A stretch of DNA of 64,000 bases from Escherichia coli (GCF_003334785.1 NZ_QOWV01000001.1), one strand, 5' to 3'. Shown: positions 30,809-30,881, counted from the stretch's first letter. Notes: generated by a model from the sequence alone, not told the origin. Numbers and translations: made by a program.

Positions 30809-30827
30809 AATAGCCCCCTGTTGAATA

Positions 30828-30847
30828 TACTGGTTATTTATACAGGT
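30828..30847 (-). promoter_or_regulatory. LexA (SOS) box upstream of dinI
   Basis: Minus strand reads tACCTGTATAAATAACCAGTA, fitting CTGT-N8-ACAG with one half-site mismatch; about 20 nt upstream of the dinI ATG. Confidence 0.8.
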
Positions 30848-30881
30848 AAAATAACCTAATGACAACAGGAAGCTACGATTT

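Follow-up and report, generated by a model that had tools for sequence, protein, structure and literature searches.

When RNA polymerase comes to the end of pyrC in Escherichia coli, what does it meet, and what does its transcript do to the SOS gene dinI that follows on the same strand? In the window, i.e., the whole stretch of 64,000 nt of E. coli DNA analyzed here (GCF_003334785.1, NZ_QOWV01000001.1), the two genes are separated by a short spacer that contains the promoter of dinI together with its LexA box. The original prediction saw in this compact junction, where it noticed no terminator, a possible interference between a pyrimidine biosynthesis transcript and SOS regulation. The elements of the locus are the following, counted from the first letter of the window.

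31929..31978, minus strand: PyrC leader (Rfam RF02372), 68.7 bits against a gathering score of 50.
30882..31928, minus strand: coding sequence of pyrC (dihydroorotase), from the list of open reading frames and the RefSeq annotation of identical genomes.
30884..30882, minus strand: stop codon TAA of pyrC, from the list of open reading frames.
30809..30881, minus strand: spacer between pyrC and dinI, 73 bp, with the sequence AAATCGTAGCTTCCTGTTGTCATTAGGTTATTTTACCTGTATAAATAACCAGTATATTCAACAGGGGGCTATT.
30808..30806, minus strand: ATG of dinI, from the list of open reading frames.
30563..30808, minus strand: coding sequence of dinI, 81 amino acids, DinI family PF06183, from the list of open reading frames and RefSeq.
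30518..30543, minus strand: intrinsic terminator of dinI, with a stem at 30543..30528 and a T-run to about 30518, from the terminator scan.

The gap of 73 bp given in the original prediction, from the stop of pyrC at 30882 to the start of dinI at 30808, agrees with the coordinates of the open reading frames and with RefSeq. The assignment of dinI to the DinI family follows from PF06183, which is present on every DinI homolog listed, including those 99%–100% identical. The PyrC leader is a known 5′ control element and belongs to the transcript upstream of dinI (Rfam). The spacer is that of K-12 MG1655, with no differences (the NC_000913.3 coordinate is the window coordinate + 1090679), and over the whole dinI–pyrC stretch a single base in 1366 differs from K-12. 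A 521-bp query around the junction finds a match in each of the 5426 complete E. coli genomes (with 100% identity in several), where dinI and pyrC are annotated, and the 111-bp stretch around the spacer has an identity of at least 99% in 5159 of them.

A complete σ70 promoter is present within the 73 bp, with 17 nt between its −35 and −10 elements.

30865..30860, minus strand: −35 element of dinI, TTGTCA, from the sequence by eye and by script.
30847..30828, minus strand: LexA (SOS) box of 20 bp, ACCTGTATAAATAACCAGTA, the best weight-matrix site in the window.
30842..30837, minus strand: −10 element of dinI, TATAAA, inside the LexA box, from the sequence by eye and by script.
30830, minus strand: predicted transcription start of dinI, a G (±1 nt), 7 nt past the −10 element.

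The promoter scan overlooked this promoter because its rule needs a T at position 6 of the −10 element, where dinI has an A. From the predicted start, the 5′ UTR of dinI is 22 nt. The LexA box (30828–30847) encloses both the −10 element (30837–30842) and the predicted start at 30830, a placement in which the bound repressor occludes the promoter.

The box itself is a TACTGTATATATATACAGTA-type palindrome with a CTG-N10-CAG core. It was scored with a 20-bp matrix for which 22 E. coli SOS boxes served as training sites, the dinI box being left out. With 21.8 bits, it is the top site of the 64-kb window (the runner-up has 11.1), it exceeds the highest site in 30 shuffled windows (17.3 bits), and it is on par with real SOS boxes (median 21.0 bits). 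The weight-matrix score proposed as a check in the original prediction thus bears out the box that it had placed at 30828–30847. A loose CTGT-N9-CAG pattern is uninformative (10 matches in the window vs. 5.9 expected) and was dropped in favor of the matrix.

The box is also conserved in orthologous junctions. In 37 pyrC–dinI junctions (25 loci from a genome scan and 12 from protein look-ups), a CTG-N10-CAG box occurs at a constant distance from the ATG of dinI, with Trabulsiella as the sole exception in distance. The predicted 5′ UTR is 20–24 nt in 36 of the 37; in Trabulsiella, the annotated ATG is ∼45 nt further on.

Experimental data on the box exist for two species. In E. coli, the dinI box is tabulated with a heterology index (HI) of 4.8, and dinI displays a 49-fold induction by AZT with a 39-fold dependence on LexA cleavage (PMC11228462). 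The dinI operator is shifted by LexA in EMSA (PMC5999292). In Klebsiella pneumoniae, the dinI ortholog is positive in LexA ChIP, its start has been mapped onto the LexA box by dRNA-seq and primer extension, and ∼50 bp upstream of that start are enough for induction (PMC10907235). An absence of LexA binding, which would have undone the original prediction, is excluded by the EMSA, the 39-fold dependence, and the Klebsiella ChIP. The Klebsiella figures (a primary transcript of 348 nt, minus the 157 nt of DinR, minus 169 for the cleavage position in the CDS) leave a leader of 22 nt. This leader is equal to the one predicted in E. coli and, therefore, supports the predicted start at 30830.

It is close to certain that the spacer constitutes the complete LexA-repressed σ70 promoter of the SOS gene dinI, with LexA covering the −10 element and the start and blocking initiation until its RecA-stimulated self-cleavage. 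The SOS box and the compact junction are established SOS biology and add nothing new on E. coli. The dinI box was reportedly found downstream from pyrC by Lewis et al. in 1994, and dinI is said to have been characterized by Yasuda et al. in 1996 and 1998.

On the side of termination, the scan of 30809–30881 yields no intrinsic terminator, taken as a G+C-rich stem with a loop of 3–8 nt and a U-run behind it. The nearest on the minus strand, which is the first canonical terminator downstream from pyrC, is that of dinI (30543–30528), with a 3′ UTR of ∼20 nt ahead of its stem. The original prediction was correct on both points, the lack of a visible terminator between the two genes and the position of the dinI terminator at about 30516–30545. 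For Rho-dependent termination, the signature is an untranslated C-rich and G-poor stretch of ∼80 nt with a bicyclomycin-sensitive 3′ end. In the dinI RNA, the best composition is 31% C versus 24% G, and the search for a region rich in C and poor in G, on which Rho could load, gives nothing convincing. The Term-seq and Rho tables of PMC7815308 contain no 3′ end in the spacer, nor at the dinI terminator, the locus being silent there. Supplementary file 2 of the same work contains no Rho region between pyrC and bssS, and the nearest ones are at K-12 positions 1122569 (in the 5′ part of pyrC, 38 nt into the gene) and 1120419 (in solA) (PMC7815308). The tables of 3′ ends, start sites, and operons in PMC12207403, PMC6131387, and PMC4782308 have no entries for the spacer. 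With no terminator in the spacer, RNA polymerase leaving pyrC meets nothing obvious before the LexA box.

The original prediction missed a conserved stem between the bases that follow the stop of pyrC and the ribosome-binding site of dinI. Its elements are listed here along the RNA.

30863..30876, minus strand: 5′ arm of the fold-back (anti-Shine–Dalgarno), GUAGCUUCCUGUUG, from RNA folding.
30832..30856, minus strand: inner stem of 8 bp (30856–30849 with 30839–30832), stacked inside the fold-back, from RNA folding.
30810..30823, minus strand: 3′ arm of the fold-back, CAACAGGGGGCUAU, ending 1 nt short of the AUG, from RNA folding.
30818..30814, minus strand: Shine–Dalgarno sequence of dinI, GGGGG, inside the 3′ arm.

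The predicted outer stem of 14 bp encloses the whole dinI promoter and covers the GGGGG run; its two arms are separated by a 39-nt loop, interrupted by the inner stem. The 5′ arm starts 6 nt past the stop codon of pyrC, shares 3 nt with the beginning of the −35 element, and is located upstream of the predicted start (30830) by 33–46 nt. Since the 5′ arm is upstream of the start of dinI, only a read-through RNA from pyrC could form the stem. For such an RNA of 131 nt, from the interior of pyrC into dinI, the predicted fold has −39.1 kcal/mol (z −2.86), and the Shine–Dalgarno sequence is within the 14-bp stem. The transcript of dinI itself (82 nt from the predicted start) has less structure than its shuffled versions (z +1.76), and the Shine–Dalgarno sequence is free in its centroid structure. 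The inner 8-bp stem occurs in Escherichia only; other genera have the LexA palindrome as the inner stem in its place.

The duplex between the two arms has an energy of −21.7 kcal/mol, with a z of −5.3 against shuffled upstream segments. As a further control, bases −82 to −40 were paired with bases −19 to +3, in identical geometry, for 45 annotated genes around dinI. Among them, dinI is the most extreme by far, with −21.7 kcal/mol and a z of −6.2; the second gene has a z of −2.8, and the median is −8.2 kcal/mol. An arm upstream of the gene's own (inferred) start and a pairing over the Shine–Dalgarno sequence far beyond chance are two of the traits of an IS10-like fold-back, and both are predicted here. 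No Rfam family is found over the spacer; the sole match (30808–30877, E = 2.4) is below threshold, miRNA-shaped, and due to chance. In the literature searched, we found no description of this hairpin or of read-through from pyrC into dinI; the original sequence papers on pyrC and dinI lie outside that search, so that an earlier mention is possible. Within the species, the variants sampled in four genomes affect the outer bases of the LexA box, the −10 element, or the G-run (G5 to G4), with none in the 5′ arm. Since they spare the 5′ arm, they neither test nor contradict the stem.

Among Enterobacterales, pyrC is directly followed by dinI in 25 of ∼33 loci in the genome scan and in 11 of the 12 loci reached via DinI homologs. 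The sampled genera comprise Escherichia, Salmonella, Citrobacter, Kluyvera, Enterobacter, Leclercia, Lelliottia, Kosakonia, Yokenella, Atlantibacter, Mangrovibacter, and others. In the junctions of Enterobacteriaceae (n = 27), the spacer is 65–81 bp long, without terminator, and a G-run serves as the Shine–Dalgarno sequence. A C-rich tract, typically GCCCCCUGU, follows the stop of pyrC in the Enterobacteriaceae junctions analyzed. All 27 have the duplex between the upstream segment and the Shine–Dalgarno sequence, with energies of −15.7 to −26.9 kcal/mol and z values of −2.3 to −7.0. On the read-through RNA, the G-run is unpaired with a median probability of 0.002, versus 0.32 on the gene's own transcript. 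This accessibility is lower on the read-through RNA in 23 of the 27 loci (Wilcoxon p = 3.5e-5, a value in which independence is overstated, the loci being related). As exceptions to this masking, two Citrobacter loci do no better than their own transcript, and C. koseri is merely equal.

The details of the pairing vary. The position of the C-run shifts in Mangrovibacter (over the −35/spacer region) and in Enterobacter BIGb0383 (inside the spacer), and complementarity is kept. In C. werkmanii, the C-run is lost and other bases pair instead. Matched changes in the flanks occur as GGUU/AACC in RIT691, AACG/CGUU in Enterobacter Ag1, GUGGCC/GGCCAU in C. koseri, and UCAG/CUGA in Intestinirhabdus. 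The nine core pairs contain 15 GoU cells versus one AoC cell, which fits pairing in the sense RNA, although the excess of GoU could equally come from transition bias together with the constraint on the Shine–Dalgarno sequence. The comparison of sense and antisense duplex energies over all 26 loci gives a trend only (p = 0.078). When pairs are counted in a fixed register, 76% of the cells are paired, and the covariation score of 0.111 is not significant (0.101 for shuffles; reached by 58 of 500). The nine core pairs are almost invariant and, thus, covariation there says nothing either way. RNAalifold on the first MAFFT alignment gives no consensus structure; with that and the nonsignificant covariation, we do not claim a proof by covariation.

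Could the complementarity be a coincidence? The G-run would then be kept as a ribosome-binding site, and the C-run with CTGTTG as a DNA or promoter element, with no role for an RNA hairpin. The near invariance of the core arms, the covariation at the level of the shuffles, the empty RNAalifold result, and the strand asymmetry that is a trend all go in that direction. Furthermore, the arms can be constrained separately, the 3′ arm being the Shine–Dalgarno sequence and the 5′ arm abutting the −35 element. On the other hand, the C-run moves with respect to the −35 element, or is replaced, and complementarity is retained; the flank changes are matched in several genera, and dinI is a 6-sigma outlier among the 45 local genes. 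A C5 tract just upstream of the −35 element is, to our knowledge, not a known σ70 element, which also counts against a coincidence. UP elements are A/T-rich. We regard a coincidence as rather unlikely.

Outside the Enterobacteriaceae, the trends are different. The spacer has a length of 105–143 bp in Yersinia, Pectobacterium, Brenneria, and Acerihabitans, and the anti-Shine–Dalgarno pairing there is mostly no better than chance. In the loci of Yersinia, Pectobacterium, and Brenneria, a stable hairpin occurs directly after pyrC. It is terminator-like in two of the four scanned (Y. aldovae and Brenneria) and has a displaced T-run in the other two. The idea that the anti-Shine–Dalgarno covaries with the type of Shine–Dalgarno sequence across all Enterobacterales was withdrawn after cognate and noncognate arms were swapped. 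In this swap, the pairing is not specific outside the Enterobacteriaceae, except in Erwinia psidii and Rahnella.

The plain hairpin of these distant Enterobacterales, found where E. coli has a stable compound stem 6 nt past the stop, raises the question of whether the E. coli hairpin serves pyrC instead. It might be a 3′ stabilizer, a site for RNase III or other processing (the interrupted duplex has ∼22 bp), a stop for exonucleases, or a weak noncanonical terminator. According to PMC6061677, it is common for transcripts ended by Rho to be shortened as far as a stem-loop, which would suit such a role. The tail after the stem (CUAUUAUG), however, is not that of an intrinsic terminator; no U-tract follows the stem (CUAUUAUGCGAAUU), and the terminator scan rejects it. 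Besides, a stabilizer has no need to enclose a 39-nt promoter or always to borrow the Shine–Dalgarno sequence of the neighbor as its 3′ arm. No 3′ end is listed at this place (PMC7815308), and the dinI RNA is without a marked stretch for Rho loading. A role for pyrC alone appears unlikely to us. The occurrence of a hairpin after pyrC in long spacers versus an anti-Shine–Dalgarno in short ones suggests, over few lineages, that the fold-back may stand in for a terminator.

The reading that we favor is that the fold-back, as in IS10, keeps the read-through RNA from making DinI, with a probability of about 0.5. As pyrC has no intrinsic terminator in Enterobacteriaceae, some polymerases would pass the promoter of dinI and end at the terminator of that gene. 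On the resulting RNA, the 14 nt after the pyrC stop would pair with the Shine–Dalgarno region of dinI, with the assistance of the inner stem. With its ribosome-binding site buried, the RNA driven from pyrC would yield no DinI. The mRNA of dinI itself would begin 33 nt downstream from the 5′ arm and, lacking that arm, would keep its leader open. DinI output would then depend solely on the LexA-controlled start at ∼30830. The hairpin would act as a translational insulator, and DinI synthesis would be purely under LexA control despite a pyrimidine-regulated transcript upstream. Judged from the sequence, a pyrC read-through RNA probably exists and yet is kept from making DinI.

A stem so close to a stop codon could be opened by the ribosomes that finish pyrC. 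A terminating ribosome covers ∼9 nt. With the 5′ arm 6 nt past the stop, the outer three to four pairs are within that footprint, and ribosomes melting the stem might allow DinI to be made from a bicistronic RNA, tying DinI to pyrimidine supply. The G/C-rich core of the stem (30871–30863), however, starts 11 nt past the stop codon, beyond the footprint, and translation of pyrC should, therefore, not open it. In most other genera, the 5′ arm starts 3–13 nt past the stop and the C-run is further in, again beyond the footprint. We know of no biological rationale for a translational coupling of pyrC and dinI, and such a coupling is very improbable.

Bound LexA, by analogy, might itself end the pyrC transcript. 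The repressor at 30828–30847 would be a roadblock, and thus the terminator of pyrC, in undamaged cells; read-through would occur only during SOS, when it would be harmless. For other repressors that bind tightly, roadblocking is an established effect. The operator of dinI is strong (HI 4.8, 21.8 bits) and no terminator occurs between the pyrC stop and the box, but no 3′ ends are listed just upstream of the box (PMC7815308). Moreover, a fully efficient LexA roadblock would leave few RNAs with both arms in undamaged cells, and the conservation of the anti-Shine–Dalgarno would then be hard to explain. A LexA roadblock as the whole explanation is improbable. It is near the picture drawn by the original prediction and could coexist with the fold-back. 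Bound LexA might stop most of the read-through before the 3′ arm is made, a point that counts against the insulator.

Returning to the fold-back over the ribosome-binding site, its bearing on the interference first proposed is twofold. The part of the proposal that stands is the terminator-less junction, with polymerase unimpeded up to the LexA box; as to the consequence, the conserved fold-back argues for buffering. It suggests that cross-talk between pyrimidine synthesis and SOS would be buffered rather than exploited, the opposite of a harmful interference. DinI modulates RecA filaments. In work by Yasuda et al. in 1998, over-production of DinI reportedly blocks SOS induction, and a pyrimidine-linked leakage of DinI would, therefore, be harmful. 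If real, the fold-back would be a clean natural example of a stress gene insulated from an upstream housekeeping transcript without a terminator sequence, and it would leave strict control of a dosage-sensitive SOS modulator to LexA. Cotranscription of pyrC and dinI would, in that case, not mean coexpression. This would matter for dinI reporters, for deletions of pyrC or dinI, and for operon prediction by intergenic distance and absence of a terminator.

How does this junction compare with known systems? The promoter and SOS box are those of K-12 dinI, an identical locus, and only the reading of the fold-back is additional. The conserved fold-back is a modest and testable addition to that known locus and probably a further member of a kind of insulator that is already known. 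Like an intrinsic terminator between codirectional genes, it is a stem–loop right after the upstream stop. Unlike such a terminator, the E. coli fold-back has a 39-nt loop and no U-tract, and it would block translation and not transcription.

The dinI–DinR locus of K. pneumoniae is similar in having a LexA-controlled ortholog, a start that overlaps the LexA box, and an implied leader of 22 nt (PMC10907235). Unlike in E. coli dinI, the Klebsiella 3′ UTR is extended and processed into the sRNA DinR; a hairpin upstream is not discussed there (PMC10907235). The prophage homologs of dinI (Gifsy phages, SPN3UB, mEp460) have, like dinI, a LexA box, ∼19 nt before the ATG, but they are not beside pyrC. 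SPN3UB and mEp460 have a CCTCT, right ahead of the −35 element, that complements an AGAGG Shine–Dalgarno sequence, but this pairing is weaker than in dinI. Taken as a control for a fold-back belonging to a general "dinI cassette," the phage genes are suggestive in two of the five with a LexA box, at z values of −0.7 to −1.4 that are not significant, and the fold-back is absent in mEp237.

The proposed mechanism resembles the fold-back inhibition of IS10. There, as reportedly described by Davis, Simons, and Kleckner in 1985, an arm upstream of the gene's own start pairs with the ribosome-binding site, so that outside transcripts are untranslated and the gene's own shorter mRNA is translated. 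PMC13181058 cites Davis, Simons and Kleckner (Cell 1985) for the protection of the IS10/Tn10 transposase gene from external promoters. As in IS10, the predicted arm upstream of the dinI start pairs with the ribosome-binding site. Unlike the IS10 gene, dinI is a chromosomal SOS gene, the outside transcript comes from a specific and conserved neighbor, pyrC, the loop holds a repressor-controlled promoter, and the fold-back is a predicted one. Tentatively, and at slightly less than even odds, Enterobacteriaceae would have swapped a pyrC terminator for a translational insulator, in which an anti-Shine–Dalgarno folds over a LexA-controlled promoter and silences dinI on the read-through RNA, a chromosomal counterpart of the fold-back inhibition of IS10.

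The original prediction was of possible interference between a pyrimidine biosynthesis transcript and SOS regulation at the pyrC–dinI junction. There is an unexplained link between pyrimidines and SOS, of another kind: AZT induces the whole de novo pyrimidine pathway, including pyrC, in a LexA-cleavage-dependent manner, and a LexA box is absent from every gene of that pathway (PMC11228462). The dinI box cannot account for the LexA-dependent induction of pyrC, since it lies downstream of that gene. At the 5′ end of pyrC, a Rho-dependent termination region is known 38 nt into the ORF (K-12 1122569, minus strand; PMC7815308 supplementary file 2). 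It falls at about 31890 in the window, a short way downstream of the PyrC leader of Rfam (31929–31978); this fits with transcription ending early once translation is blocked by the leader hairpin.

Within E. coli, the 111-bp junction was sampled in four variants, KSC64, 2018-05-2CC, TW05614, and Jnd12 (comparison sequences L102–L105). Outer bases of the LexA box vary among them (A30847G and C30846A), and in one strain A30841G turns the −10 TATAAA into TGTAAA. The Shine–Dalgarno run G5 is reduced to G4 in one O111:H8 assembly. In the 5′ arm of the predicted fold-back, which holds the C-run, no variant was found among these four junctions. In E. coli ST2747 (NZ_CP007394.1; comparison sequence L002, 3946–4037), a natural deletion of 514 bp, equivalent to 30331–30844 of the window, removes dinI with its terminator and the Shine–Dalgarno sequence with the 3′ arm; the greater part of the LexA box is lost as well. 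The pyrC stop and the following 37 bp are joined to the sequence upstream of bssS. That strain is a ready-made dinI null, and any pyrC read-through there would enter bssS.

Elsewhere in the window, a palindrome resembling the LexA core, CTGTATCTAATTACAG (1642–1661), scores no more than 9.75 bits, less than the top-scoring sites in shuffled windows, and is therefore probably due to chance. RNA elements elsewhere include a tRNA and known elements expected for the region:

6885–6972, minus strand, tRNA-Ser(GGA)
12572–12663, ES056
22758–22800, ES036/CssrF
53713–54049, rne 5′ UTR
55910–56078, SraB

The tRNA-Ser(GGA) is followed by a 181-bp tandem repeat in 3.4 perfect copies, overlapping the tRNA 3′ end; together they occupy 6281–6972. 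Rfam RtT (RF00391), a family described for the tyrT operon, matches this repeat three times (46.3 bits vs. a threshold of 45).

Trabulsiella odontotermitis (comparison sequence L098, 600–703) retains the LexA box as well as the C-run/G-run hairpin, and no pyrC gene is called upstream of dinI in that sequence. The annotated dinI ATG is there about 45 nt past its usual place after the G-run; a possible start at the old site opens a GTG-initiated ORF of 13 codons. In the prophage dinI homologues of Salmonella phage SPN3UB and phage mEp460 (L084 and L085, 270–403), the LexA box stands about 19 nt before the ATG; mEp460, like the Stx1 phage, has two LexA-like boxes. Directly 5′ of the −35 in both homologues, a CCTCT complements their AGAGG Shine–Dalgarno, a pairing that was not significant in a shuffle comparison. 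The layout of chromosomal dinI is the same as that of these two prophage homologues.
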